From contig JBEKHQ010000001.1 of assembly GCA_050012195.1 (NCBI GenBank), forward strand, positions 1 to 28,114: a DNA stretch of 28,114 bases, given 5' to 3'. The translations under genes and the position numbers were made by a program. Origin of the DNA: Bryobacteraceae bacterium. GTDB lineage: Bacteria; Acidobacteriota; Terriglobia; Bryobacterales; Bryobacteraceae. The number at the start of each line of letters is the position of its first letter. Positions within the stretch are counted from its first letter, which is position 1. Of this stretch, positions 9,923 through 23,675 are shown in pieces. Below the pieces are notes generated by a model that saw nothing but the letters and a program-made list of their open reading frames with translations, was not told where the DNA came from and did no database searches.

Positions 9923-10270
9923 TTACTCGCCTCCCCGACCATTGCTCTCGGCTGAATTGGCGCCCGACGAGCACTGGGCGGTGCTCTCGGCGAAATCATC
10001 CAGACCCGCGAACGGAACCTTGCTGGGGTTCAGAATCTGCAACTGCTCGGTCACTTCCGCGATCAGCCTTTCCAGCCGGTGCATCTTGTCCGCCAATTCC
10101 TCGTCCTCGCGTTGCCGGTTACCGTCGGCGATCAGCCGCTGTACCGCGCTCCGAGCCAGATCCGATACGCTGCGGGCCCCTGCCTGTTCGCAAACGCTCA
10201 CAAATTGGCGAAATTCGTCCTCCGATACTCGGAAGTACACTAACCGCTCTCTCGGCTTTAATACTGCCAC
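9923..10270 (-). CDS. Small ribbon-helix-helix (CopG/MobC-like) putative DNA-binding protein with coiled-coil tail
   Basis: 'RLVYFRVSEDEFRQFVSVCEQAGARSVSDLARSAV' fits the RHH strand-helix-helix pattern. GTG start with GGAGG upstream; stop 5 nt before wzc. Confidence 0.7.
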   Translation of the reverse strand: MAVLKPRERLVYFRVSEDEFRQFVSVCEQAGARSVSDLARSAVQRLIADGNRQREDEELADKMHRLERLIAEVTEQLQILNPSKVPFAGLDDFAESTAQCSSGANSAESNGRGGE

Positions 10271-10344
10271 AAACTTGCCCTCCGGTTTTTCAGCTGCATG
10301 GTCCCCTCAAAACCTAACCTCACCCCCATGACAGGGTCACTAGG

Positions 10345-10359
10345 GCAAGCTACCGCCCT
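10345..10359 (-). promoter_or_regulatory. Possible sigma54 (-24/-12) promoter for the EPS/exosortase operon
   Basis: Minus strand reads AGGGCGGTAGCTTGC: GG-N10-GC with TTGC at -12. The -24 element is an imperfect match to TGGCACG. Confidence 0.35.
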
Positions 10360-10418
10360 TTCTGTCCCAATCATGGTGCGACTAGACGCTCCCAAGCGCG
10401 TCCAAAATCCTCTCTCTA

Positions 10419-10472
10419 TGACAGTTGTCAGCGCTTACTCATGGAGTATGCAGGATCGTATGACAAGTGTCA
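10419..10472. promoter_or_regulatory. Two TGACA-N2-TGTCA palindromes, candidate transcription-factor sites
   Basis: tgacagttgtca at 10419-10430 and tgacaagtgtca at 10461-10472, both preceded by TA, 42 bp apart in a divergent intergenic region. Confidence 0.6.
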
Positions 10473-10549
10473 ATGAACTAACGGGCTAGGTTTCCTATTG
10501 AGGGTACTAGTATTAGCAATCTTGATGAAAAATAGGAGACACTAGGACC

Positions 10550-11458
10550 ATGCAGCCCTCGCCGTTTGCGGCTCTGGCGATCCTCGGTCTAGCTCCTTGG
10601 CTGGTACAGGCCCAGGCTAAAACTAAGACTGCCCCCCCGGACCGGACCAACTTTGTGAATTGTCTCCAGGGACTCTCGGGTTGCGATCTTTCGCTGCTCG
10701 CTTCCGACGAACTCGCGAAAGTGGGCGCCGAGTCCAAGAAGCGCAATCTGGATTACTGTTTGAACGGCTCCGCGCTCTGCGATCCGACGCGTCTCAGCGC
10801 GGCGGAGGCGAGTTCGGTTCAAGCCGCCCATTATCGGCGCAATTTAGAAAAGTGCATGAACGGAGAGAACGCCTGCGATGCGCTGTCACTCGCCGCCAAG
10901 GATATGGCTGCGGTGAATTCCGCCAAGGCCCAGCGAAATTTCGACAAATGCGTCAGCGGAGCTCCAACTTGCGACGCCACTGTTCTGACGAAAGAACAAG
11001 CCGCCTCTGTACAGGCCGCCTCTCAGCGCCGTAATTTCGACCGCTGCCTGAACGGATCTTCCCTGTGCGATCCCTTGCGGCTTGCGCCCAATGAAGCCGC
11101 GGCGGTACGGGCGGCCGCTCTCCGGCGGAATCGGGACCGTTGCATGGAAGGTTCGTCCACTTGCAATCCCCTCGCTTTAACGGAATCAGAGGCCAAAGAC
11201 GTTCGCGCCGAGGTGCACCGCCGCAATCTCGCGAACTGTCTGAACGGATTGGCGAACTGCGATCCGGTGTCGCTTCAGAATTCGGACCTGGAAAACGCGC
11301 GGGCGGCGTTTCGCCAGCGCAACGTGGAAGCCTGCAAGCGGGGGCTTCCCGCCTGTGATCCGTCGGTTCTCACGGGCCCCGAGATGGCCAGCGTCATGGC
11401 GGCGTTCCAAGCGCGCCGCAGCCGGATGGAACGATTAAAGCCGCCCGCCAAACCCTGA
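10550..11458 (+). CDS. Secreted cysteine-repeat protein of unknown function (8 x 32-aa repeats)
   Basis: Signal-peptide-like N-terminus ending ...VQAQA, GGAG ribosome site upstream, and regular repeats. Confidence 0.85.
   Translation: MQPSPFAALAILGLAPWLVQAQAKTKTAPPDRTNFVNCLQGLSGCDLSLLASDELAKVGAESKKRNLDYCLNGSALCDPTRLSAAEASSVQAAHYRRNLEKCMNGENACDALSLAAKDMAAVNSAKAQRNFDKCVSGAPTCDATVLTKEQAASVQAASQRRNFDRCLNGSSLCDPLRLAPNEAAAVRAAALRRNRDRCMEGSSTCNPLALTESEAKDVRAEVHRRNLANCLNGLANCDPVSLQNSDLENARAAFRQRNVEACKRGLPACDPSVLTGPEMASVMAAFQARRSRMERLKPPAKP
10649..11416 (+). repeat. Eight tandem 32-aa (96-nt) coding repeats, consensus N-xxx-C-L-x-G-xxx-C-D-P-xx-L-xxx-E-xxx-V-xx-A-xx-R-R
   Basis: Read directly from the translation; every unit carries CX6C at the same offset. 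Confidence 0.9.
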
Positions 11459-11502
11459 TCGACTTCGCCCTGGCCCGAGCCGCGGCGTGTTAGGCTGGCA
11501 CG

Positions 11503-12447
11503 ATGACACGAGCTTCCGTCGCCCCCGTCATTCTCCTTGGGCTTTTCATCCCACTTGCGCGCGGCGCGAACGCCGACTTCAATTTGCAAAAGATCGGCCC
11601 CGGCGTTTGGGCCGCGATCGTGAACGATGCTGGAAAAGCCGGGGGCAACGCCGGATTCGTGGTCGGCGACGATGGAGTTGCGGTGATCGACACCTTTCAA
11701 GACCCGGAGCCTGCCCAGGCGCTCGCGGCCGAGATTCGAAAAATCACCAAGCTGCCGATTCGGTTTGTCGTCAACACGCACTATCACCTGGATCATGTCA
11801 ACGGCAACGATGTATTCGCCGCCGCGGGAGCCGTCATTGTTGCGCACCGGAACGTGCGCGCTTGGATGCGGACGGAAAACATCAAAATGCTCGATCCACC
11901 CGTGACGAAGGAGAAAACGGCCCGGGTGGCATCGCTGACGCTGCCGAACGTGGTCTACGACGATCGCATCGATCTCTATCTCGGATCGCGCCGAGTCGGG
12001 GTTCGATACTATCCCGGCCACACCGGCGGCGATTCGGTGGTCTGGGTACCGGACGCGCGCGTGGTGTTCTGCGGCGACATGCTGTGGAAGGATCATATTC
12101 CGAACCTGATTGACGCTTCGACCGCGGCCTGGGTGGCGACGCTCGACGCATTGCCGAAAGACTACGGCGTGTCCACCTGGGTTCCGGGCCATGGGGGCGT
12201 GGCCGACGCCCGCGATGTTCGGGCCTTCCGTGGTTATCTCGCGGATCTCCGCGACTCGGTTCGCGCGGAACAAGTCCGCGGGAAGTCCGGCGACGCGCTG
12301 GTGAACGCGATCCTGCCCGGCCTCCAGGCGAAGTACGGGAAATGGGGCTTCTTCAACGACTACGCGCGCGCCGGCATCGAACAAATCGCGGACGAGCTTT
12401 CGGGAAAAAAGAAAGTGCCGCGGCCAGTCGCCGTCGGCGCCCGGTGA
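11503..12447 (+). CDS. Metallo-beta-lactamase fold hydrolase, probably secreted
   Basis: 'NTHYHLDHVNGN' (HxHxDH), 'GHTGGD', 'GDML' and 'PGHG' motifs, plus an N-terminal signal peptide. Substrate unknown. Confidence 0.88.
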   Translation: MTRASVAPVILLGLFIPLARGANADFNLQKIGPGVWAAIVNDAGKAGGNAGFVVGDDGVAVIDTFQDPEPAQALAAEIRKITKLPIRFVVNTHYHLDHVNGNDVFAAAGAVIVAHRNVRAWMRTENIKMLDPPVTKEKTARVASLTLPNVVYDDRIDLYLGSRRVGVRYYPGHTGGDSVVWVPDARVVFCGDMLWKDHIPNLIDASTAAWVATLDALPKDYGVSTWVPGHGGVADARDVRAFRGYLADLRDSVRAEQVRGKSGDALVNAILPGLQAKYGKWGFFNDYARAGIEQIADELSGKKKVPRPVAVGAR

Positions 12448-12456
12448 CGAGCGGGC

Positions 12457-14145
12457 CTATCGCGCCGCGGCGTCAATCCGGCTGCGATCGGCGGCGGCTT
12501 CGAGCAGGATGGTTTGATGCGCGATGCGGGCGAGCGAAGCGCGGTGCGTGATCAGAATCGCGGTCCGACCCTCGGAGACTCGCACCAGCGTGTCGGCGAT
12601 GGCGCGCTCGTTGGCTTCATCGAGCGCCGAAGTAGGTTCGTCGAGAACCAGAACTTTCGGATCGGCCAGCAGCGCGCGCGCCAGAGCGATCCGCTGGCGT
12701 TCCCCCGCCGAGAGCGTTTGCCCGCGTTCGGCGAGGATCGTGTCGTAGCCTTCGGGAAGCGACAGAATGCGCTCGTGAATCGACGCGGCTCCGGCGGCCC
12801 TCCGAATCTCGTCGTCCGTCGCGCCGGGCCGGGCGTAGGCTATGTTCTCGCGCACGCTGGCGCGGAAGAGATAGGGAACTTGATCGACCAGCATCACCGC
12901 GCGGCGCAGGTCCGTCAAAGTGACATTGCGCAAATCGCGTCCGTCGATACGAATGGCGCCCTGTTCCGGGTCATAGAAGCGAACCATGAGATCGGCCAAC
13001 GTCGATTTGCCGACGCCGCTCGGCCCCAGGATGGCGCAGATCGTTCCGGGCGCCACTCGAAAGGACAGATCGTCCAGAACCGCTCCGCCGCCATAACCGA
13101 ACGAAACGCGGTCGAATTCGATTTCACCGCGAACTTCGGCCAACGGCGCGGCGTCAATCCGGTCGGTGATCTCGGCCTGGGTGTCGAACAGTTCCCAGAC
13201 GCGCGCGAGCGAGACTCCGCCGGTCACCAGGTTGCTGTACAGACTCATCATGTTCTGCACCGGCGAGAGCAGGCGCGTATGGTACGCCATGATGGCTACC
13301 AGCGATCCGACGGTGAGCGCGCGGTCGATCACCAGCTTTCCGCCGTATAGAAAAAGCGCCGCGGTGGAGAGCGTCAGGATCGTGCCGGGAACGGCGCCCG
13401 CCAGAAACGCGGTGAGCTGCATGCGCATGAGCGCGTCCAGGAAGTTTTGGTTGTGGCCGCGGAAGCGTTCCACCTCGCGCGTTTCGGCCTGCGCCGCCGT
13501 CACCAGTCGGATCCCCAGCAGCGTCTCGAGCAGGAAACTTCCGATGTCCGAACTGCGTTCCCGAACCGTCCGCACGCGCGCGGCCAGCCGATGCTGGTAG
13601 TGCTGCAACGCCCACACGCTGGCCGGAATCGCCGCCACGCTCACCAGGAAGAGACGCGGGCTGAGGGAAAGCATGATGGCCGCGCTCCCGATCAGAAACA
13701 CGACGTTCGAAAGAATGCTCAACAAGCTATCGGAGGTCACTCGTTGCACCTCGGCGATGTCGTTGTTGATGCGCGAAACCACGTCGCCGAGCTTGCGCTG
13801 CGCCCAGAATCGCGGCGACAGAGTTTGCAAGTGCCGATACAGGGCGAGGCGCATGTCGAAAAGCACTAAGGCCGATACCCGCACGTATTGATAGCTGGAC
13901 AATATGTTGAGCACAAATCCCACCACCGTGACGCCGAGCATCAATCCGCTCACGAGCAACAGCATGCGAAAGTTGTGCTTCAACAGCGCGTCGTCGATCA
14001 GCAACTTCGAGACATACGGTTGCAGCAAGCTGAATCCGGTGGCGGCGATTCCCGCCAGCAACACTAAGACCAGGCGGCGCCAGTACGGGACGACGAATCT
14101 AACCGCGCGGCGGTAGCCGCTCAGAGGAATGCCTCGATCCGGCAT
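12457..14145 (-). CDS. ABC exporter, fused TMD-NBD half transporter (MsbA/ABCB-like)
   Basis: N-terminal TMD; Walker A GPSGVGKST; signature LSAGERQR; Walker B VLVLDEPTSALD; H-switch LITHR. Start ATG 14145 follows AGAGGA. Confidence 0.92.
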   Translation of the reverse strand: MPDRGIPLSGYRRAVRFVVPYWRRLVLVLLAGIAATGFSLLQPYVSKLLIDDALLKHNFRMLLLVSGLMLGVTVVGFVLNILSSYQYVRVSALVLFDMRLALYRHLQTLSPRFWAQRKLGDVVSRINNDIAEVQRVTSDSLLSILSNVVFLIGSAAIMLSLSPRLFLVSVAAIPASVWALQHYQHRLAARVRTVRERSSDIGSFLLETLLGIRLVTAAQAETREVERFRGHNQNFLDALMRMQLTAFLAGAVPGTILTLSTAALFLYGGKLVIDRALTVGSLVAIMAYHTRLLSPVQNMMSLYSNLVTGGVSLARVWELFDTQAEITDRIDAAPLAEVRGEIEFDRVSFGYGGGAVLDDLSFRVAPGTICAILGPSGVGKSTLADLMVRFYDPEQGAIRIDGRDLRNVTLTDLRRAVMLVDQVPYLFRASVRENIAYARPGATDDEIRRAAGAASIHERILSLPEGYDTILAERGQTLSAGERQRIALARALLADPKVLVLDEPTSALDEANERAIADTLVRVSEGRTAILITHRASLARIAHQTILLEAAADRSRIDAAAR

Positions 14146-14198: not shown

Positions 14199-14226
14199 TT
14201 GTAGGGCTCCCGAATTCGCCTATAAT
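14199..14226 (+). promoter_or_regulatory. Putative sigma70 promoter of the redox/NOS gene cluster
   Basis: TTGTAG (14199-14204), 16-nt spacer, perfect TATAAT (14221-14226); AAGAGG precedes the TTG start at 14256. Confidence 0.5.
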
Positions 14227-14255
14227 GAAACCTCGTATTCAGTAAAGAGGCGGCC

Positions 14256-15929
14256 TTGATTTTCGACGATCTGCGAGCGATTCAAAAGCAATACGGGTAT
14301 CTGCCGGGCGAGCAACTGGAGGCGCTCAGTAAGCGCACCCAACTGCCGCTGTACCGGATTCACGGAGTGGCCGACTTCTTTCCGCATTTCCATTTGACGC
14401 CGCCGCCCAAGGTCAGCTTCAAGGTCTGCACCGACATGTCCTGCCATCTGTGCGGGGCCGACGATCTGCGCACCGGCCTGGAACAGCGCTTCCAGGGCAT
14501 GAACCCGACCGACCTGAAAATCGGCGAGGTGTCGTGCTTGGGCCAGTGCGACGGAGCGCCCGCGGTTTCGATCAACGATCATATCTATCGCGGCGTCACG
14601 GCCGCGCAGGCCGAAGCGCTGGCGCTCACCGCGCTGGGCGGCAGCGAGTTGCCGCACATGCCCGGCGACGCGCGCGTCACCGGCCTGGCTTCCGATCCCT
14701 ATCGCGACTCCGAGCCCTACGGCGCGCTCCGAACCGCGGTCGCGACGCGCGACTGGACCGGGGTGATCGCGCAACTGAAAGCCGCCGGCCTGAGCGGCAT
14801 GGGCGGTGCCGGATTTCCGACCGGCTTCAAGTGGGAAGCGGTGCGCAACGCGCCGGGTCCGGAGAAGTACGTGGTCTGCAACGCCGACGAGAGCGAGCCG
14901 GGCACCATCAAGGACCGCTTCATTCTGCAGAACCTGCCGCACTTGGTGATCGAGGGCATGATTCTGGCCGGCCTGGTGACGGGCGCGCACCAGGGCATTC
15001 TGTATTTGCGGCACGAGTACGAAGGCGCCGAGCACGTTCTGGCTCACGAGATCGAGCGCTGCTACCGGGCGGGCTTGCTGGGAGCGGGCGTGCTGGGCAG
15101 CGATCTGGCCTTCGATCTGGAGTTGTTCATCAGTCCGGGCGGCTATATCTGCGGCGAGGAGAGCGCCTTGATCGAAGCCATCGAGGGGCACCGGGCGGAG
15201 CCGCGCAACAAGCCGCCCTTTCCGGTGACGCACGGCGTGTTCCACAAGCCCACCGCGCTGAACAACGTGGAGACCTTCGCCAACGTTCCGCAGATCCTGA
15301 TCAACGGCGTGGATTGGTACAAGGGGCAAGGGCTGGGCGGGGCGTCAGGATTGAAGTTCGTGGGCATCAGCGGCGACGTGCGCAATCCGGGGATCTTCGA
15401 GATTCCGATGGGCCTGCCGATGTCGGAAGTGATCTTCAACCTGGCGGGCGGCATCGTGGGCGGAAAAAAGCTGAAAGCCTTCGCGCCGTCGGGACCTTCG
15501 TCGGGTTATCTGCCGGCCGCGGCGGCCGACGTGCGTCTGGACTTCAAGTCGCTGGCCGCCATCGGATCGATGCTCGGCTCGGGCGCCATCGTGATCTGCG
15601 CCGAGGGCCGCTGCATGCTGGACATGGCGCTGAACGCGGTGAAATTCTTCCGCAACGAAAGCTGCGGAAAATGCGTGCCCTGCCGCATGGGGACGCAAAA
15701 GCTGACCGACATTATGACCGGCTGGACGCGCGGCCAGGGCAACCGCTCGGACATGGGCATGGTGGAGGATCTGACCGAGACCTTGAAGCTGGCCTCCATC
15801 TGCGGCCTGGGTCAGTTCGCCCACGTGCCGCTGACTTCGGTGCTGGAGCACTTCCGGCCGGAGATCGACGCGCATGTGTACGACCGGCGCTGCCCGGAGG
15901 GCGTGTGCCCGATGCGCGAGCCATTTTGA
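14256..15929 (+). CDS. NuoE-NuoF fusion (diaphorase module: thioredoxin-like [2Fe-2S] + FMN/NADH-binding + [4Fe-4S])
   Basis: NuoE Cys set 'CTDMSC...SCLGQC'. NuoF motifs 'GMGGAGFPTGFKW', 'NADESEPGTIKDR', 'YICGEESAL', 'NNVETFAN', 'ESCGKCVPCRMG' and 'SICGLG'. Not in a complex I operon. Confidence 0.92.
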   Translation: MIFDDLRAIQKQYGYLPGEQLEALSKRTQLPLYRIHGVADFFPHFHLTPPPKVSFKVCTDMSCHLCGADDLRTGLEQRFQGMNPTDLKIGEVSCLGQCDGAPAVSINDHIYRGVTAAQAEALALTALGGSELPHMPGDARVTGLASDPYRDSEPYGALRTAVATRDWTGVIAQLKAAGLSGMGGAGFPTGFKWEAVRNAPGPEKYVVCNADESEPGTIKDRFILQNLPHLVIEGMILAGLVTGAHQGILYLRHEYEGAEHVLAHEIERCYRAGLLGAGVLGSDLAFDLELFISPGGYICGEESALIEAIEGHRAEPRNKPPFPVTHGVFHKPTALNNVETFANVPQILINGVDWYKGQGLGGASGLKFVGISGDVRNPGIFEIPMGLPMSEVIFNLAGGIVGGKKLKAFAPSGPSSGYLPAAAADVRLDFKSLAAIGSMLGSGAIVICAEGRCMLDMALNAVKFFRNESCGKCVPCRMGTQKLTDIMTGWTRGQGNRSDMGMVEDLTETLKLASICGLGQFAHVPLTSVLEHFRPEIDAHVYDRRCPEGVCPMREPF

Positions 15930-15954
15930 AAAACGAAAGCAACTACAGCAATAG

Positions 15955-18114
15955 ATGAGCGACCAAATCCAACTCACCATCGACGGCATGCCGGTATCGG
16001 TTCCGGCCGGGACCACGGTATTCGACGCCGCGCGCATGCACGGCATCGCGATCCCCACGCTGTGCCATCAACAGAACGAGACGCCGGTGGGAGTGTGCCG
16101 GGTGTGCGTGGTGGACGTGGAGAAGGCGCGCGTGCTGCAGGCCTCCTGCGTGCGTCCGGCGGAAAACAACATGGTGGTGTCCACCAACTCGGACCGGGTG
16201 CGGAGGGCGCGGCACACCTTGGTGGAGCTGCTGATGGCGGATCATCCCAGCCCATGCGCGCGGCAGCGGCAATCCAACGATTGCGAGCTGGAAACCATGG
16301 CGCGGCTGGAAGGCATCACCCAGCCTCGCTTCGCGCGCCGACTGTCGCCGCGCGGCCAGGACAACTCGTCGCTGGTGATCGCGGTGGATCACGAGGCCTG
16401 CATACTGTGCGACCGCTGCATCCGGGGCTGCGACGAGATTCGCCAGAACAACGTGCTGGGGCGGCGCGGCAAGGGCTTCGGAGCGGGCGTGGCGTTCGAC
16501 TACAACCTGCCCATGGGAAATTCCTCGTGCGTGTCGTGCGGGGAATGCATGGTGTCCTGCCCCACCGGCGCGCTCACCAACAAGAGCGTGATCAAGACCG
16601 TGCTGCCGGGCGACCCGGTGAAGGTCGAAGAGCTGCAGCAGCTGGCCTATTTCCAAAAAGTCTCGGGCACGTTTCTGGAGCTGAACAAGAACGCGGTGGT
16701 GCGGCGCCGCTTCCGCAAGGGCGAGATCGTGTGCCGGGAGGGCGAATACGGCTCCACCGCGTTCTACATTTTGGAAGGCCAGGCGCACGTGTATCTGGAC
16801 ACGCCGCTGGCGCACGTCAAGACCGGGGGCGGATCCACCGGGTTTTTCAGCAAGCTCACCAGCCGCCTGGTGGGACGCCAGCAGGAACGGCGCCCGGAGG
16901 AAGGCGCGCGCTTCAGCATTCCCATCGACGCCTCGGTCGACCTGCCCTACGACAATCCGGTGGCCACGCTGGGACCGGGCGACCTGTTCGGCGAAATGAC
17001 CTGCATGAGCCTGTATCCGCGCTCGGCCACGGTGCGCGCGGCCACCGATTGCGTGATGTTCGAGATGCTGCGCAACGTGCTGGACATCATCCAGCGCAAC
17101 AAGACGCTCAAGGCGCAGCTGGACGCCAACTATCGCAAGCGGGCGCTGGACGACCATCTGCGCAGCGTTCCGATGTTCGCCACCATGACGCAGGAGTTCA
17201 TCGACCTGCTGCGCGACAAGGTGGAGCTGGTGCGCTACACCAAGGGCGACATCGTCTGCCGGCAGGGCGACATCGCCGACAGCTTCTACCTGGTCCGGCT
17301 GGGCTTCGTGAAGGTATCGGAACCGCATCCGGGGGGCGAGCTGGTGCTGGCCTATCTGGGACGGGGCGGCTACTTCGGCGAAATCGGATTGCTGGGCGAG
17401 GGGCGCCGCACGGCCACCTGCACCGCGCTCGATCACGTGGAGCTGGTGCGCATCCACGCCGACGAGTTCCACCAGATGGTGGACCGGTTCCCGGAGATCC
17501 GGCACAGCCTGGAGCAGCTGGCCTACGAGCGGCAGCAGCAGAACCGGCAGCGGCTGGAAACCGCCACCAGCATGCCCTTGGACGCGTTCCTGACGCAGGG
17601 CCTGATGGAAGCGCAGAGCCTGTTGGTGCTGGATCTGGAGCGCTGCACGCGCTGCGACGCCTGCGTGCGGGCCTGCGCCGACGCGCACGACGGCGTGACG
17701 CGGCTGATCCGCGAGGGCCAGCGCTTCGATCATTATCTGGTGGCCACCTCCTGCCGGCATTGCCGCGATCCGTTGTGCATGGTGGGGTGTCCGGTGGGCT
17801 CCATCCGGCGCCGCAACTCGCTGGAAGTGATTATCGAGAACTGGTGCATCGGCTGCGGCATGTGCGCCAAGAACTGCCCCTACGGCAACATCACCCTGCA
17901 TCCGTTCAACGTCATGGAGGACGATCCGATGAATCCCGGGCACCGCAAGGCGGTGGTGAAGCAGAAGGCGGCTTCCTGCGATTTGTGCACCGAGCACGCC
18001 GAACCGACCTGCGTGTACGCCTGCCCGCACGACGCGGCGCATCGGGTGGAACCCAACGAATTTTTCCGCTGGCTGGGCACCCCTCTGGCCGCCACCGAGG
18101 CCCAGAAACACTAA
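15955..18114 (+). CDS. Multi-Fe-S protein: NuoG/FdhA-like N-terminal [2Fe-2S] + 2x[4Fe-4S], two cNMP-binding domains, C-terminal DmsB-like 4x[4Fe-4S]
   Basis: 'PTLCH...GVCRVC...ASC'; 'CILCDRCIRGC'; 'CVSCGECMVSCP'; cNMP cassettes 'FGEMTC..PRSATV' and 'FGEIGLL..RRTATC'; then 'CTRCDACVRAC', 'CRHCRDPLCMVGCP', 'CIGCGMCAKNCP' and 'CDLC...CVYACP'. Confidence 0.9.
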   Translation: MSDQIQLTIDGMPVSVPAGTTVFDAARMHGIAIPTLCHQQNETPVGVCRVCVVDVEKARVLQASCVRPAENNMVVSTNSDRVRRARHTLVELLMADHPSPCARQRQSNDCELETMARLEGITQPRFARRLSPRGQDNSSLVIAVDHEACILCDRCIRGCDEIRQNNVLGRRGKGFGAGVAFDYNLPMGNSSCVSCGECMVSCPTGALTNKSVIKTVLPGDPVKVEELQQLAYFQKVSGTFLELNKNAVVRRRFRKGEIVCREGEYGSTAFYILEGQAHVYLDTPLAHVKTGGGSTGFFSKLTSRLVGRQQERRPEEGARFSIPIDASVDLPYDNPVATLGPGDLFGEMTCMSLYPRSATVRAATDCVMFEMLRNVLDIIQRNKTLKAQLDANYRKRALDDHLRSVPMFATMTQEFIDLLRDKVELVRYTKGDIVCRQGDIADSFYLVRLGFVKVSEPHPGGELVLAYLGRGGYFGEIGLLGEGRRTATCTALDHVELVRIHADEFHQMVDRFPEIRHSLEQLAYERQQQNRQRLETATSMPLDAFLTQGLMEAQSLLVLDLERCTRCDACVRACADAHDGVTRLIREGQRFDHYLVATSCRHCRDPLCMVGCPVGSIRRRNSLEVIIENWCIGCGMCAKNCPYGNITLHPFNVMEDDPMNPGHRKAVVKQKAASCDLCTEHAEPTCVYACPHDAAHRVEPNEFFRWLGTPLAATEAQKH

Positions 18115-18119
18115 CGCCC

Positions 18120-18998
18120 ATGCGGATCGATCACACCCACCGTCCCTGGTTCGTCGTCACGCTGATCGCGGCCGCGGTTGCGACGGTCGTGTACATCTTA
18201 TATGCGGTCAACACGCCCACCGGCCCGCGCGGCGGCAGCGCGCTGGGTCTCACGTTCGGCATCCTGGGCTACGGCCTGATGCTGTACGCCGGATTGATCG
18301 GCGCGCGCAAGAAAGTGCCCACCTGGCGCATCGGACGCGGGCAAACCTGGATGCGCGGGCACATCTGGCTGGGCACGCTGAGCCTGCTGATCATTCTGTT
18401 TCACGCCGGCTTCGCGTTTCGAGGGCCGTTGACGACGGCTCTGATGATTCTGTTTTTCCTGGTGATCGCCAGCGGCATCGCGGGCGCGGCCCTGCAACAC
18501 TTCGTGCCCGGCGTCATGACCCAGCGCGTGCCCATGGAGACCATCTACGAGGAGATCCCGCACGTGCGCGTGCAACTGTGCGAGGAGGCCGACAAGCTGG
18601 TGGCCTCCATCTGCGGCCCCATGGACGCCGACGACACCGAGGAGCCCGCCGCGGCCGTCACCACGCTGGTGGAAATCGAACAAGGCGACAAAGCGCGCTT
18701 CCGCGAGATCTATCTGCAGCAGGTCCGCCCCTATCTGGCCGATCCGGAAGCGAGGCAAGCCGACCTGGCCGATCCGCTGCGCTCCACGCAGATTTTCGAA
18801 TCCATGCGCCGGCTGCTGGGCGGGCAGTTGCACGGCGTGCTGGACGATCTGGAAAACATCTGCGAGGAGGAACATCAGTTGAGCCGGCAGATTCGCATCT
18901 ATCGCTGGCTGCACGGCTGGCTGCTGATCCACGTTCCGTTGTCCATCGTATTGCTGGTGCTGGGAGGGGTGCACGCCGTCATGGCGCTGCGCTATTAA
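18120..18998 (+). CDS. Ferric-reductase-like transmembrane protein (putative diheme cytochrome b), 292 aa
   Basis: C-terminal part of the spurious 16062-18998 ORF; the real start is ATG 18120, 5 nt after the upstream stop. About 5 TM helices with two His pairs 14 residues apart: HIWLGTLSLLIILFH and HVPLSIVLLVLGGVH. Confidence 0.8.
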   Translation: MRIDHTHRPWFVVTLIAAAVATVVYILYAVNTPTGPRGGSALGLTFGILGYGLMLYAGLIGARKKVPTWRIGRGQTWMRGHIWLGTLSLLIILFHAGFAFRGPLTTALMILFFLVIASGIAGAALQHFVPGVMTQRVPMETIYEEIPHVRVQLCEEADKLVASICGPMDADDTEEPAAAVTTLVEIEQGDKARFREIYLQQVRPYLADPEARQADLADPLRSTQIFESMRRLLGGQLHGVLDDLENICEEEHQLSRQIRIYRWLHGWLLIHVPLSIVLLVLGGVHAVMALRY

Positions 18999-19002
18999 TC
19001 CC

Positions 19003-20316
19003 ATGGCCGGACGAACCCGCACCACCAAGAAACTGGCGCAGCGCATCAATCTGAATTACTTCAAGACCCTGCGCGGCATCCCGCGCTGGCGGCGCATCCT
19101 GTCCGGCGTTTTGGTCGCGCTCGGCGTCGCGTGGCTGGGCTGGTACGCGCTGGCGGGCACTCCCAAGCCCTATAACGCCGGACCGGTTTCGCACACCCAC
19201 ACCCTGATCGGAGGCAAGTGCGAAACCTGTCACGCGACCCAGGCCGGCTTCGAGCACAGCGCCACCGATAAAGCCTGCCTGACTTGTCACGACGGTCCCA
19301 TTCATCACGCCGAACAGACTTTCTCGCCGGCCTGCGCCAGCTGCCACGTCGAGCATAAGGGCGCGTTTCGGCTGGCCGCCACCACGGACGAAGCCTGCAC
19401 GCAATGCCACGCCGATCTGGCGGCCAAGGATAAGAACGCGCCGCCGCGTTTTGTTTCAAACATCCGCGGCTTCGACGGCACGCATCCCCAGTTCGCGGTG
19501 CTGCGCTCGGGCCGCATCGATCCGGGCACCATCAAGTTCGGCCACCAGGTGCATTTGAAGAAGGATTTACGAGGGCCGCACGGGCCGGTGCAACTGCAAT
19601 GCGCCGATTGTCATCGCCCGCAAGGCTTGAACCAACCCTGGCCGTTCAGTATCGCGCAGATCGCTCCGGTATCGTTGTCGGCCGCCCTGCCCGACCGATC
19701 CTACATGGAGCCGATCAACTACGAAAAGCATTGCGCCACCTGTCACACATTGCAGTTCGACCGGCGCTTCTCCGAAAGCGTGCCGCATAAGGAGCCCAAG
19801 GTGGTGTACGATTTCGTGGTCGAGAAACTGACCGGCTACATCGCGGAGCATCCCACCCAGATTCCGCTGGTGGACGAGCCGGACAAGCGGCTGCCCAGCC
19901 GTCCGCCGCAGCCGCCGGCGCGCAACGCTCGCGAATGGGTGGCCGAGCGGCTGACCGATTCCGAGTTCCTGTTGTGGCGCAAGGCCTGCAAGGAATGCCA
20001 TCTGGAAACCTTTCCGAACGGCAACGACGCGCTGCCGGTGGTAGCCAAGGCGGCCATCACGGCGCGCTGGCTGCCGCATTCCAACTTCGATCACGAAGCG
20101 CACCAGATGGTGGCCTGCGCTGCTTGTCACGCCAAGGCGCCCACCAGCAAGGAGACCTCCGACGTCCTGATCCCCGGCGTCCAGGTCTGCCGCGACTGCC
20201 ATCATGCCGGTAAGGAAGCCGCCGAAGCCCGCTGCTTCGAGTGTCACAACTATCACGACTGGACCAAGGAAAAACCCCCCGTCGGCAAGTTCGCCGTTTC
20301 CCAGCTCGGCCAATAA
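19003..20316 (+). CDS. Membrane-anchored decaheme cytochrome c
   Basis: Ten CXXCH motifs counted (CETCH, CLTCH, CASCH, CTQCH, CADCH, CATCH, CKECH, CAACH, CRDCH, CFECH). Basic N-terminus followed by one hydrophobic helix. Confidence 0.92.
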   Translation: MAGRTRTTKKLAQRINLNYFKTLRGIPRWRRILSGVLVALGVAWLGWYALAGTPKPYNAGPVSHTHTLIGGKCETCHATQAGFEHSATDKACLTCHDGPIHHAEQTFSPACASCHVEHKGAFRLAATTDEACTQCHADLAAKDKNAPPRFVSNIRGFDGTHPQFAVLRSGRIDPGTIKFGHQVHLKKDLRGPHGPVQLQCADCHRPQGLNQPWPFSIAQIAPVSLSAALPDRSYMEPINYEKHCATCHTLQFDRRFSESVPHKEPKVVYDFVVEKLTGYIAEHPTQIPLVDEPDKRLPSRPPQPPARNAREWVAERLTDSEFLLWRKACKECHLETFPNGNDALPVVAKAAITARWLPHSNFDHEAHQMVACAACHAKAPTSKETSDVLIPGVQVCRDCHHAGKEAAEARCFECHNYHDWTKEKPPVGKFAVSQLGQ

Positions 20317-20349
20317 GCGGCTCGTGGTGGAGTAAACTGCAAGGTACGC

Positions 20350-23300
20350 TTGCCCCCAGAAACATCCGTTCCGCAAACGATGAATGAGTTATTGGCGCTG
20401 CTCCGTTCGGTCCCTTTCCTGGCTCCATTGACGGATTCCGAACTCGAGCATATCGCTCAACAATCCAGCAGGGAGACCGCGGCGCCCGGCCGCGTAATTG
20501 TGCGCGAGGGCGAAATCGGCGAATGCATGTACGTGATCGTGCGCGGCGCGGTACAGATCCTCACAACTTCTTTCGACGGATCGGACGTCGTGCTGGCGCG
20601 CCTGGAAGCCGGTCAATGGTTCGGCGAACAAGCGCTTCAGCCGGGCGGAACGGGCCGGCGCAACGCCAGCGTCCGGGCGATCGAGGAGTGCAGCCTGGTG
20701 GTGCTGTCGCGCGACCTTCTGCGGGATGTGCTCGCGCAGGACTCCCAGTTGCTGGTCGAGTTGCGCAAGAGAGGAGCAGAGCAGCGAGCGCTGCGCAACA
20801 ACCGCCTTCGGGAGGGAGTGTTTGCGACCCTGGGCTTGGAGTCAGGCTCCCTCGAATATCGCGTAGAGAAATATCCCGCGGGCGAGGCGGTCTTTCATCA
20901 GGGAGACCGCGGAGACCGGCTGTATCTGATCCTGAGCGGGCGCGCGCATGTGGAGCGAACCGAGGGCGGCGAGCGCAGGATTTTGGCCGAGCTGCTGCCC
21001 GGGCAATTTTTCGGCGAGCTCGCAATATTGCGCGACACGCCGCGCAACGCGACCGTGGCGGCAGCCGACGAGCTCGAAGTGGTGAGCCTGGACGGGGAAT
21101 GGTTCCGGCGCGCGCACGATCAAAATCCGGCGCTGCGGTCGTTGATGGAGTCGCTCGAGAGCATGTACCTGCTCCCGCATCGCGGCCTGCTCACGCTGCA
21201 GACGGGACAGTTGGACGGCAAGCCGGCGCTGACGGCGGTGCACAATCTTCCGGACGGCAGGCGCGTCATGAGCACGCGGCTTACCGGCGCGCCCGCGTTC
21301 ACCGCGCAAGTGCTGGACGCGGAGAAATCCGGCGCCGCGTCCGTGATCTACGAGAAGCCGGAGCACGGAATCTACCGCGAGCTGCAGGTCGGCGGCGGCA
21401 AACTGACGGGCCTGGAATCGCAGGGCGAGTGGACCGGCTTGGGCGACATGTTCGGCCGGTTGCTCGACGGCGCGCCGGTGGAGGAATGGCAACTCGCGCT
21501 GTTCCGCGAGCGCGGCGATTTCCGGGTACAGGAAGTTCAGCCGCTCTATGAAGAGAAAGAGATCATCTGCACCTGCACTCACACCAGTTGCGGCAAGATC
21601 ATGCAGGCCATTCGCGACAACTGCACCACCGTGGAACAGGTGGCCAAGCGCACCAACGCGACGCGGGTCTGCGGCGGCTGCATGCCCTTGGTGCGCGAAC
21701 TGCTGGGACAGTCGGATTGGACGGCGGCGCACGTGATCGAGCGCGTCCCGCTGGCGGAGGACGTGCGATCTTTTCGCATCCGCCCGATCGCGGGCGAGTG
21801 CCGGGATTGGCTGCCGGGACAGCACCTGGTGCTCCAGGCGCGCATCGATAATCGTTGGGTGCAGCGCGCCTACACTCTCTCGTGCGCTCCCGGCGGGAGC
21901 TGGTACGAGATCACCGTGAAACGCGAGCCGCAAGGCGTGTTCTCGCGCTGGTTGTTCGATCGCATGCCGCAAGATGCAATGCTGCGCGTGTCGGAACCGG
22001 GTGGCGAGTACCATCTGCCCGCCGATCAGACCGCGGACGTCGTGTGCCTGGTGGGCGGTATCGGCGTAACTCCGGCGCTCGCGATGGCGCGGACTTTGAG
22101 CGCGCGGCCCAGGCCCTTCCGGCTGCATGTGCATTATTGCGCCTCCCAGCCGGACGACCTGGTGGGCCGCGACGAACTGGCGGCGCTGTCACAAAAGAGC
22201 GAACGCATTTCGGTCGAATTCCGCGCCACGCGACTGGAAGGCCGCTTCGGGCTGGAGCAGGTTCGCGAAGTCGCTAATCGTTTTCCGGGCGCGCTCTATT
22301 TCCTGTGCGGAAGCCCGCCCTATATGGATGCCGTGGGCGGGTATCTGCGGGAATGCGGAGTGCCGGAGGAGCGCATTCGCGTCGAGGTTTTTATCGCCGC
22401 GGGCGCCAAGGTGGCTGAGCAGGCGGCCCCCAAACATTGCCCGGTGGATCACGCGGCGCGCGCTTTGGAAACTCCTGCCGCGCCGCTCGAACAGGCGCGC
22501 GCGATGCTGGGCGATTGTTATCGCGAGGCCAACGCTCCGCCGTCGGTTTTCGAGGCGCGCTGGCGCAAGGTAGAGGACGAATTTCAGCTCGACCAGACCT
22601 ATAGCCAGACCTTCGAAGAGCTGGTGTACGCGTCGCGCGTCGCCTGGAGGAACAGCGTCAAATGCATCGGCCGATTGTTCTGGCAAGGGTTGGCGGTCCG
22701 CGATTTCCGCCATGTTCAAACCGAGGACGAGATGTTCGAGGCGATTTTCTCGCACATCGAAACGGCCATGAACGGCGGGAATCTGCGGCCGCTGATCACG
22801 GTCTTCCCGCCCGCGGACAAGGACGGCCACAAGCCGCGCATCTGGAATCCGCAGATTTTTCGCTACGCGGGCTACCGGATGCCGGAGGGCCCTGTACTGG
22901 GCGATCCCGCGAATGTCGAGCTCACCGAAGCCGCGATCCGTTTGGGCTGGACGCCTCCCGCCGCGCGCGGCCGTTTCGACCTGCTGCCGGTGATCCTGGA
23001 AGCGGGAGGCCGTAAGCCGCAGTGGCGCGAGATTCCCAAGCACTTGGTGGTCGAAGTGCCGATTCTGCATCCGCGCTTCGAAGGCTTCCAAAATCTGGGA
23101 TTGAAGTGGTACGCGCTGCGGCTGGTGGCGGGCATGCTGCTCGACGCCGGCGGAGTGCAATACTCGGCCGCGCCCTTTAACGGCTGGAGCATGGGCACGG
23201 AAATCGGCGCCCGGATCTTCAGCGACGTCAATCGCTACAACCAGTTGCCCGAGGTCGCAAAAATCCTGGGACTTGATACCGAAAGCGATCGAACCTTGTG

Positions 23301-23568
23301 GCGCGACCGGGCGCTGGTGGAGCTCAACGTCGCTGTTCTGCACTCCTTCGACAAAGCAGGGATCAAGATCATGGATCACCACGCGGCGAGCGAAGCCTTC
23401 ATGAAGTTCGACGATCAGGAGAGCCGCGCCGGCCGACCCGTACACGCGCGCTGGAGCTGGATCGTGCCGCCGATTTCAGGCTCCGCGACACCCGTATTTC
23501 ATCAGGAATGGACGGATGTCGAGATCAAACCGAACTATGTTGCCCTGCCCGAGCCGTGGAAGGCTTGA
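20350..23568 (+). CDS. nos: Nitric oxide synthase fusion: 2x cNMP-binding, BFD-like [2Fe-2S], FAD/NAD(P)H reductase (FNR-like), NOS oxygenase
   Basis: cNMP cassettes 'FGEQAL..RRNASV' and 'FGELAIL..PRNATV'. BFD 'ICTC...VCGGC'. Reductase 'RAYTLS', 'GVFSRWL', 'GGIGVTP' and 'LCGSPPYM'. NOSoxy 'AWRNSVKCIGR' (heme Cys), 'RIWNPQIFRYAGY', 'PFNGWSMGTEIG', 'IMDHH' and 'WSWIVPPISGSATPVFHQ'. Start is TTG 20350 or ATG 20380. Confidence 0.92.
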   Translation: MPPETSVPQTMNELLALLRSVPFLAPLTDSELEHIAQQSSRETAAPGRVIVREGEIGECMYVIVRGAVQILTTSFDGSDVVLARLEAGQWFGEQALQPGGTGRRNASVRAIEECSLVVLSRDLLRDVLAQDSQLLVELRKRGAEQRALRNNRLREGVFATLGLESGSLEYRVEKYPAGEAVFHQGDRGDRLYLILSGRAHVERTEGGERRILAELLPGQFFGELAILRDTPRNATVAAADELEVVSLDGEWFRRAHDQNPALRSLMESLESMYLLPHRGLLTLQTGQLDGKPALTAVHNLPDGRRVMSTRLTGAPAFTAQVLDAEKSGAASVIYEKPEHGIYRELQVGGGKLTGLESQGEWTGLGDMFGRLLDGAPVEEWQLALFRERGDFRVQEVQPLYEEKEIICTCTHTSCGKIMQAIRDNCTTVEQVAKRTNATRVCGGCMPLVRELLGQSDWTAAHVIERVPLAEDVRSFRIRPIAGECRDWLPGQHLVLQARIDNRWVQRAYTLSCAPGGSWYEITVKREPQGVFSRWLFDRMPQDAMLRVSEPGGEYHLPADQTADVVCLVGGIGVTPALAMARTLSARPRPFRLHVHYCASQPDDLVGRDELAALSQKSERISVEFRATRLEGRFGLEQVREVANRFPGALYFLCGSPPYMDAVGGYLRECGVPEERIRVEVFIAAGAKVAEQAAPKHCPVDHAARALETPAAPLEQARAMLGDCYREANAPPSVFEARWRKVEDEFQLDQTYSQTFEELVYASRVAWRNSVKCIGRLFWQGLAVRDFRHVQTEDEMFEAIFSHIETAMNGGNLRPLITVFPPADKDGHKPRIWNPQIFRYAGYRMPEGPVLGDPANVELTEAAIRLGWTPPAARGRFDLLPVILEAGGRKPQWREIPKHLVVEVPILHPRFEGFQNLGLKWYALRLVAGMLLDAGGVQYSAAPFNGWSMGTEIGARIFSDVNRYNQLPEVAKILGLDTESDRTLWRDRALVELNVAVLHSFDKAGIKIMDHHAASEAFMKFDDQESRAGRPVHARWSWIVPPISGSATPVFHQEWTDVEIKPNYVALPEPWKA

Positions 23569-23647: not shown

Positions 23648-23675
23648 TTGAATCTCGTCCAAAGTGACCTATAAT
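23648..23675 (+). promoter_or_regulatory. Putative sigma70 promoter upstream of the large surface-protein gene
   Basis: TTGAAT (23648-23653), 16-nt spacer, TATAAT (23670-23675) in an AT-rich intergenic region. Confidence 0.55.

Follow-up and report, generated by a model that had tools for sequence, protein, structure and literature searches.

A Ptd(EFG)-like redox operon with cyclic-nucleotide-binding domains in a peat bacterium of the Bryobacteraceae, and the nitric oxide synthase gene beside it

Introduction

Do five closely spaced genes of a peat bacterium encode one redox system, or a conserved electron-transfer module with a separate enzyme gene beside it? The question is raised by a 28,114-nucleotide stretch of DNA (contig JBEKHQ010000001.1 of GenBank assembly GCA_050012195.1, positions 1 to 28,114; hereafter the window) from a member of the family Bryobacteraceae, class Terriglobia. 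The genes, here named g1 to g5 (Table 1), are separated by 25, 5, 4 and 33 bp, respectively. An earlier note had read them as a new system, in which a redox chain from cytoplasm to periplasm and a nitric oxide synthase (NOS), both carrying cyclic nucleoside monophosphate (cNMP)-binding domains, are co-regulated by one second messenger. Inspection of the open reading frames (ORFs), together with Pfam and NCBIfam domain calls for g1–g5, verified the common strand, the gaps and the domain assignments given there, as well as the presence of four cNMP domains on two redox proteins, two in g2 and two in g5.

In the interpretation that we consider probable, g1–g4 encode a single membrane complex of the Ptd(EFG) type, which passes electrons from NADH to a decahaem cytochrome under the control of cNMP, and the NOS is a separate accessory gene of rare occurrence.

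Conservation of the four-gene core

A gene-neighbourhood search for the four-gene core, as suggested in the earlier note, was run with a g3 profile over one genome per species. It matched 582 stretches, and the best 80 loci, nearly all from Terriglobia (Bryobacterales, Terriglobales and Acidoferrales), were inspected. The order g1-g2-g3-g4 was kept in 80/80 loci as far as the contigs reach, and was complete in 69 of them. About 20 genomes of the genus possess the four genes in identical order. The g3 family comprises 2327 protein clusters, and in an even sample of Terriglobia 50 of 251 genomes were matched, about 19 of them strongly. At the DNA level, the block of homology with the nearest relative runs from 14210 to 20315, i.e. 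from 46 nt before the start of g1 exactly to the stop codon of g4. This sequence comparison indicates that g1–g4 are a discrete, deeply conserved operon, widespread in soil and peat acidobacteria. Contigs from four peat metatranscriptome runs also lie on g1–g4, and the g1/g2, g2/g3 and g3/g4 junctions are all spanned.

The operon has recurrent neighbours. A c554-like cytochrome (four CXXCH and one longer motif) stands divergently upstream in 61/80 loci, an approximately 1240-residue LVIVD-repeat protein with 9–10 CXXCH motifs convergently downstream in 33/80, and an HbpS-like protein follows the operon in 27/80. These neighbours are candidate acceptors for the electrons leaving g4. The earlier note had left the terminal partner open, and this stands insofar as the window contains no catalytic partner; however, the usual flanking cytochromes are encoded on other contigs of this genome, the c554-like one at G000:C89:4184-5467 (L136) and the LVIVD multihaem cytochrome (approximately 1250 aa) at G000:C121:330-3677 (L137). 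A description of a multihaem cytochrome fused to an LVIVD propeller was not found in the literature, where one preprint mentions LVIVD proteins.

Variants of the cluster occur in other Bryobacterales families, in which the connector lacks the HoxU-like N-terminus and NuoEF does not adjoin. In one of these (L032; G026:C15, 3986-14239), a connector with cNMP domains, four Fe-S motifs and a C-terminal FHA domain is followed by a g3-like protein, a decahaem cytochrome, a PP2C phosphatase, a Ser/Thr kinase, a type II NADH dehydrogenase with its own cNMP domain and an FHA-adenylate/guanylate cyclase. This looks like a self-contained set for cNMP and phospho-signalling around the same kind of electron wire. 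In another variant (L135), the connector is accompanied by a g3 relative that has a large insert (10001-12652), a multihaem cytochrome and a c554-like cytochrome. Together, these two loci show that the trio of connector, g3 and decahaem cytochrome is constant and that the NAD(P)H input is variable.

Some genomes deviate in copy number or reading frame. G015 contains the core operon three to four times (contigs C1, C8, C15 and C20), several copies at contig ends and one with an in-frame TGA in g2; a duplication, a mixture of strains or an artefact of assembly could account for this. The g2 gene of G008 and G024 is split over three frames, possibly through long-read indel errors.

Composition of the core proteins

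Along g1, Pfam places 2Fe-2S_thioredx (NuoE-like), Complex1_51K (the NuoF domain for flavin mononucleotide, FMN), SLBB and NADH_4Fe-4S in this order, and the full complement of cluster cysteines is present. Against the NuoF model TIGR01959, g1 scored 439 bits at a cut-off of 558.65, so that it is not a complex I orthologue. Similarly, g2 reached 172 against the HoxU equivalog model, whose cut-off is 333. With all scores below the equivalog cut-offs, neither NuoE/NuoF of complex I nor HoxE/F/U proper was identified in these proteins. Canonical NuoG-like genes are found elsewhere in the genome, and no quinone, hydrogenase or formate dehydrogenase catalytic partner module was found in the window.

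The Fe-S connector g2 is built of three parts. Residues 1–215 form a HoxU/NuoG-type N-terminus (2Fe-2S and 4Fe-4S), residues ~225–540 contain two cNMP_binding domains (131 bits), the first with an insert of about 60 aa, and residues 546–719 form a polyferredoxin at the C-terminus, whose 16 Cys make up four complete cluster motifs. The site of the His-ligated 4Fe-4S cluster (H-x3-C-x2-C-x5-C type of HoxU/NuoG/HydA; 16243-16284, residues 97–110) reads H97, C101, Q104 and C110. The phosphate-binding cassettes of the two cNMP domains, FGEM...RSAT and FGE...RRTAT, are invariant or nearly so in 50 homologues including two distant ones of PtdE type; within this set F345-G-E-M, R356-S-A-T, F474-G-E and all 16 C-terminal Cys are invariant. 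Both domains carry the Gly-Glu and Arg-(Ser/Thr)-Ala residues taken as the mark of functional nucleotide binding, which they are accordingly predicted to perform. Relatives of g2 that are 80–91% identical fall into more than 120 protein clusters, and a Pfam search of g2 found no output domain (DNA-binding, kinase or cyclase).

The cytochrome g4 starts with a basic tail, followed by one N-terminal anchor helix and the ten CXXCH motifs; Pfam assigns Cytochrome_C7 and Paired_CXXCH_1. Across 32 orthologues all ten CXXCH motifs and ten further His residues are invariant, which fits ten bis-His haems. The AlphaFold 2 (AF2) model of g4 has a predicted local distance difference test score (pLDDT) of 52.

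The membrane protein g3 and its predicted contact with g2

In 53 relatives of g3, H81, H95 and H271 are invariant and H285 is conserved to at least 90%; the His pairs sit in two helices with a 14-residue spacing. According to the AF2 model (pLDDT 92) and the positive-inside rule, H81/H271 would lie near the cytoplasmic side and H95/H285 near the periplasmic side, and the helical insert at ~137–262 is predicted to be cytoplasmic. This arrangement suggests that g3 binds two haems. Pfam has no match for g3 itself; among the 53 relatives, sub-threshold matches were obtained to DUF4405 (16), Ferric_reduct (14) and Ni_hydr_CYTB (4). Together with a weak STEAP1 alignment, these matches agree with a dihaem-b protein, short of proof. 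Many g3 relatives (450–880 aa) contain an insert of 200–600 aa between helices 4 and 5, within the predicted cytoplasmic domain, for which Pfam likewise has no match.

Comparison with known folds gave little. A Foldseek search of the g3 model against the PDB returned nothing at E <= 0.001, the g3 profile had no match among PDB sequences, and no solved structure covering g3 or the entire g2 was found. In a wide VIA-align search with the g3 model, helical sensor domains came out on top; STEAP1 reached a Z score of 7.3 and cytochrome b561 one of 7.2.

The complex modelling proposed in the earlier note was carried out for g3 with residues 546–719 of g2. The predicted complex reached an ipSAE of 0.65, compared with 0.13 for the best of three controls. 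For comparison, 58 of 80 solved complexes and 2 of 110 mismatched pairs attain such a value; these counts are only rough because own alignments were used. The predicted interface involves the cytoplasmic loops of g3 (residues 1–6, 60–78, 126–143 and 261–265) and the first and last cluster motifs of g2. The model supports binding of the ferredoxin end of g2 to the cytoplasmic face of g3.

Relation of the NOS gene to the core

Given the short distance between g4 and g5, the NOS and the conduit may be functionally coupled: the module or its c-type partners would then handle NO or NO-derived species, or feed or drain the NOS, with one second messenger switching both. The occurrence of the two argues against it. 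In the species-representative loci the NOS stands beside the core in 0/80 cases, and direct adjacency was seen only in the species of the window. The NOS is present in 2/41 relatives and in 1/400 other Acidobacteriota; the sole NOS genome among the latter (G481) has no g3-family gene, and conversely most core-bearing genomes have no NOS. This distribution does not support the place in the system that the earlier note had given to the NOS.

In this species, nevertheless, NOS and g4 are adjacent on the same strand, 33–63 bp apart depending on the start codon, which speaks for coupling. The same holds for the occurrence of the g4-NOS junction in a second assembly, L043, an independent assembly of the same species from another sample and the only other locus among those examined with the arrangement of the window, to which it is 97.5% identical from 20184 to the window end. 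Misassembly as the origin of the junction is ruled out by L043. Insertion of the NOS as foreign DNA has no compositional support, as the GC content is even across the cluster.

An account of the adjacency is provided by L044, in which g3 and g4 are followed by a glycogen-debranching-like (GDE) gene on the opposite strand and then by the NOS. In blastn, the window up to 20314 matches L044 up to 2383, and the window from 20327 matches L044 from 4523. The window has the layout of L044 minus the 2.1-kb GDE gene, so that loss of GDE explains the adjacency of g4 and NOS, which is a species-level consequence of this deletion. The opposite-strand gene between core and NOS in L044 is a further point against coupling.

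Inspection of the NOS loci of 12 lineages with up to 10 kb on each side gave evidence in both directions. Besides L044, a module of this kind lies within 10 kb of the NOS in two others. In L042, it is represented by a g4-like gene at 9 kb, on the opposite strand. In the distant lineage L138, whose NOS is 59% identical, a PtdE-type connector and a c554-like cytochrome are encoded on the opposite strand at a distance of 7.4 kb. In contrast, seven NOS loci (L040, L041, G015, L139, L140, L141 and L142) show no module within 10 kb. As a separate observation, the gene that most regularly accompanies the cNMP-NOS in the genus is GDE_N/GDE_C, usually in divergent orientation: it directly adjoins the NOS in L040, L041 and L044, and is separated from it by about 1 kb in G015 (L033), on the upstream side, and by about 5 kb in L042.

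Expression and control of the NOS also appear to be its own. An element upstream of it, GTAAACTGCA, is found at equal distance before the NOS in L043, L044, L040 and L041, and, altered at one or two positions, in L042 and L033, with differing genes upstream; homology with the NOS leader of L044 begins at 20327. The element is probably part of a promoter belonging to the NOS. RNA contigs, dense on the core, are sparse on the NOS, with three short pieces only, and none among the contigs listed bridges the g4-NOS junction. Co-regulation by one second messenger had been deduced from the shared cNMP domains, and intact-looking cassettes in g2 and NOS alike can be cited for coupling; however, this genome, 75% complete, contains about 8 cNMP-domain proteins and five class III cyclases, which makes shared cNMP domains weak evidence of co-regulation. 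Two further points in favour are that the usual partner of the core is a c554-family cytochrome and that the authors who named the ptd cluster raise a nitrogen-oxide role for it (bioRxiv 10.1101/2023.11.21.568154).

On balance, we regard functional coupling of the NOS to the conduit as unlikely. A more specific form of it is slightly less likely still, namely that the loose linkage of cNMP-NOS and PtdEFG, which occurs in this genus and in a single distant lineage with another connector subtype, reflects a real pairing. A cNMP-switched periplasmic system consuming or transforming NO or its products would then be paired in some lineages with an endogenous cNMP-switched source of NO, and the species studied here would have fused both into one transcription unit. 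We retain the interpretation of g1–g4 as a complex in its own right, with the NOS as an accessory neighbour.

As to the NOS protein itself, two cNMP domains are followed by a BFD-type 2Fe-2S domain, an FNR-like FAD/NAD module (flavin and nicotinamide adenine dinucleotides) and a C-terminal NOS oxygenase domain (PF02898, 496 bits). Its start is more likely ATG 20380, because the closest homologues are 1062–1065 aa long; the gap to g4 then becomes 63 bp. The cassettes of the cNMP domains read FGE...RRNAS and FGE...RNAT. The protein aligns with iNOS at E 2e-115, and the haem-thiolate Cys of WRN..CIGR is kept. Around 23100-23220, it has WYALRLVAGM for WYALPAVANM, GWSMGTEIG for GWYMGTEIG and ARIFSD for VRDFCD of iNOS, and several positions of the pocket are changed; the haem Cys and the Glu of GTEIG are kept. 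Over 60 protein clusters, distributed over several phyla, have the cNMP-cNMP-BFD-FNR-NOS architecture, and no paper describing it was found. A related, widespread family of approximately 686 aa consists of cNMP-cNMP-BFD-FNR, lacks an NOS domain and shares about 50% identity with the N-terminal two thirds of the NOS, so that the cNMP-controlled reductase also exists as a free-standing module.

Proposed electron transfer and its control

For g1–g4, the synteny, the invariant cassettes and Cys residues, the predicted g2-g3 interface and the RNA contigs over three junctions make the chain from cytoplasm to periplasm proposed in the earlier note the best reading, once the NOS is taken out of it. 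The cofactor binding, direction of flow, cNMP gating and acceptor that we infer would combine as follows. NADH would be oxidised at the FMN of g1. By way of the Fe-S clusters of this protein and those in the N-terminal part of g2, the electrons would reach the ferredoxin end of g2 with its four clusters. This end, seated on the cytoplasmic face of g3, would deliver them to the two bis-His haems of g3, which would carry them through the membrane. The anchored g4 would then hand them to further periplasmic multihaem cytochromes, such as the c554-like and LVIVD proteins that flank the operon in relatives and are encoded elsewhere in this genome. The cNMP domains of g2, located between its two Fe-S halves, most likely render the hand-over between these halves dependent on cAMP or cGMP. 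Because a conduit of this kind would drain NADH and the membrane potential, a gate that keeps it off unless signalled would make sense.

Several points weigh against this interpretation. The effect of the g2 cNMP domains on electron transfer is something we infer from sequence, and no biochemical study of any member of the g1–g4 family was found. The Gln in place of a Cys ligand (Q104) at the N-terminal cluster site of g2 is kept in the family consensus; the cluster of H97/C101/Q104/C110 may be missing or unusually ligated, and the wire in g2 may depart from the HoxU model. For g3, the Z scores of STEAP1 and cytochrome b561 are within the noise for helical bundles, and the protein has no significant Pfam or solved-fold match. 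The RNA contigs alone cannot establish one transcript for g1–g4. Finally, the NOS lies less than 10 kb from a module of this type in 4/12 lineages, more than chance placement would give, and the term mere neighbour may understate its link to the core.

The direction of flow deserves separate consideration. In NAD-linked hydrogenases and formate dehydrogenases, NuoEF/HoxEFU modules work in both directions, and the g2 N-terminus matches the diaphorase families of these enzymes. The core could accordingly run inward, with periplasmic donors such as Fe(II), reduced humics or H2-derived carriers reducing NAD+ at g1 via g4 and g3. On bioenergetic grounds, however, inward flow would be uphill in two respects: the electrons would have to leave the positive for the negative side of the membrane and, in addition, attain the potential of NAD+/NADH. 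The core contains no ion-pumping or quinone-coupled subunit to pay for this, whereas the membrane potential would aid export. We therefore favour outward flow and consider inward flow very improbable. Least probable is that the complex serves chiefly as a sensor of the periplasmic or NADH redox state with Fe-S clusters and cNMP domains as its signalling core: cluster variants such as L032 are indeed embedded among signalling genes (FHA, Ser/Thr kinase, PP2C phosphatase, cyclase), but g2 lacks an output domain, and a full NADH dehydrogenase input, at least eight Fe-S sites, twelve haem sites and 80–91% identity across the genus resemble a metabolic enzyme.

Regulatory elements and flanking genes

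The earlier note had placed a TATAAT promoter before g1. The hexamer is present at 14221-14226 and is conserved within the genus; however, a generic sigma-70 scan did not call it, as a good -35 is missing. The sequence CTATAATGAAACCTC is kept at a fixed distance before the conserved TTG start of g1 in most orthologous loci of the genus, and the CTATAATGAAACCTCG motif recurs at equal distance in L045, L048, L052, L054, L056, L059, L062 and L094. Homology with the nearest relative begins at 14210, slightly upstream of this motif, which may act as the promoter of the operon. A terminator scan called no terminator-like site on the forward strand inside the cluster, in line with the earlier remark that none is obvious between the genes.

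Table 1. Coordinates of the genes and conserved elements discussed in the text.
Feature	Description	Coordinates	Strand	Basis
g1	NuoE-NuoF fusion, 557 aa; NADH/FMN input module with 2Fe-2S and 4Fe-4S sites	14256..15929	+	Pfam, Cys pattern
g2	Fe-S connector, 719 aa	15955..18114	+	Pfam/NCBIfam, Cys motifs
g3	Five-helix membrane protein, 292 aa; likely dihaem-b transmembrane step	18120..18998	+	Hydropathy, conserved His, AF2 model
g4	Membrane-anchored periplasmic decahaem cytochrome c, 437 aa	19003..20316	+	Ten CXXCH, anchor helix, Pfam
g5	Self-sufficient NOS with two N-terminal cNMP domains; likely start ATG 20380	20350..23568	+	Pfam/NCBIfam, homologues
CTATAATGAAACCTCG	-10-like element, about 30 nt before g1 start	14220..14235	+	Conserved
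GTAAACTGCA	Conserved element upstream of NOS; possible -10 of its own promoter	20332..20341	+	Conservation

The flanks of the cluster are unrelated to it. Upstream lie an ABC transporter, an MBL-fold (metallo-beta-lactamase) protein and an exosortase/exopolysaccharide (EPS) locus, and downstream a giant gene for a He_PIG/BACON protein. The sole full sigma-70-like promoter match of the region (TTGAAT, 16 nt, TATAAT; 23648-23675) is located between the NOS and this giant gene. In L043, the He_PIG/BACON gene is followed by that of a PEP-CTERM protein, in keeping with the exosortase locus upstream of the cluster.

Significance

If the proposed mechanism is true, a second messenger acts directly on a respiratory electron wire and not via transcription. 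We know of no bacterial electron-transport complex for which direct second-messenger control of this kind has been established. The operon is abundant in peat and soil Terriglobia and transcribed in peat. The core could provide the inner-membrane entry point that is still missing from the extracellular electron transfer proposed for peat Acidobacteriota (bioRxiv 10.64898/2026.05.27.727921), and would in this case have a bearing on carbon turnover in bogs and on methane suppression. The NOS carries less weight than the earlier note had given it, and the natural fusion of the two in this species offers a convenient test of interaction between NO synthesis and the conduit.

Comparison with known systems

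On the input side, g1 has the 2Fe-2S site of NuoE and the FMN and N3 cluster sites of NuoF, and residues 1–215 of g2 can be aligned to HoxU and NuoG and to the N-terminal parts of bifurcating HydA and FdsA. In contrast to HoxEFU, NuoEFG, FdsGBA and HydABC, no hydrogenase, formate dehydrogenase or quinone module follows g1-g2. Instead, the HoxU-like part is joined via two cNMP domains to a DmsB/HydN-like four-cluster ferredoxin, and one ligand of its His cluster is Gln.

A cytoplasmic reductase, two stacked bis-His haems and a periplasmic acceptor are combined in MsrQ/YedZ with Fre, in STEAP and NOX, and in Tmc/Hmc of sulfate reducers. The scheme proposed here for g2-g3-g4 resembles these systems, with no significance in sequence or fold. 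A difference lies in the build of g3, with its five helices and a large helical insert on the cytoplasmic side; in relatives, the insert can be as long as about 600 aa.

The Sorangium cellulosum-type self-sufficient NOS reportedly has its reductase N-terminal to the oxygenase in one polypeptide. The NOS of the window is alike in having 2Fe-2S and FNR-like reductase parts N-terminal to the NOS oxygenase and in keeping the haem-thiolate Cys motif, and differs by its two N-terminal cNMP-binding domains.

Among published clusters, those reported for peat Acidobacteriota are porin-cytochrome clusters of the outer membrane and not this inner-membrane module (bioRxiv 10.64898/2026.05.27.727921). On the combination of NuoEF, cNMP domains and cytochrome, the literature yielded nothing specific beyond a preprint on marine oxygen-deficient zones. 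There, a ptdABCDEFG cluster was named and its function called completely unknown; PtdE is described as carrying a cNMP domain and 4Fe-4S clusters, PtdF as a transmembrane protein resembling ferric reductases and PtdG as a decahaem cytochrome of the periplasm (bioRxiv 10.1101/2023.11.21.568154).

The trio g2-g3-g4 agrees with PtdE-PtdF-PtdG, order included, a likeness drawn from the published description alone and not from the sequences. As a cytoplasmic protein with cNMP domains and 4Fe-4S clusters, g2 corresponds to PtdE, and the periplasmic decahaem cytochrome c g4 to PtdG. For PtdF, g3 has the right position and four conserved His; it has no Pfam match, and the Ferric_reduct matches of its relatives are sub-threshold. 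Penta- or tetrahaem cytochrome partners are a further recurrent feature, in Terriglobia in the form of the divergent c554-like cytochrome. In contrast to the ptd cluster, the pentahaem PtdA, the porin PtdB, PtdC and the tetrahaem PtdD have no counterpart in the window. The input also differs: the FAD/NAD(P) oxidoreductase PtdC serves in ptd, whereas here a NuoE-NuoF fusion is combined with a HoxU-like N-terminus fused to the PtdE-like protein. The hosts differ as well, being marine bacteria in the case of ptd and Acidobacteriota of peat and soil here. The kind of system has thus already been named (bioRxiv 10.1101/2023.11.21.568154), contrary to the novelty claimed in the earlier note, and the core is a NuoEF/HoxU-fed variant of the uncharacterised Ptd(EFG) kind.

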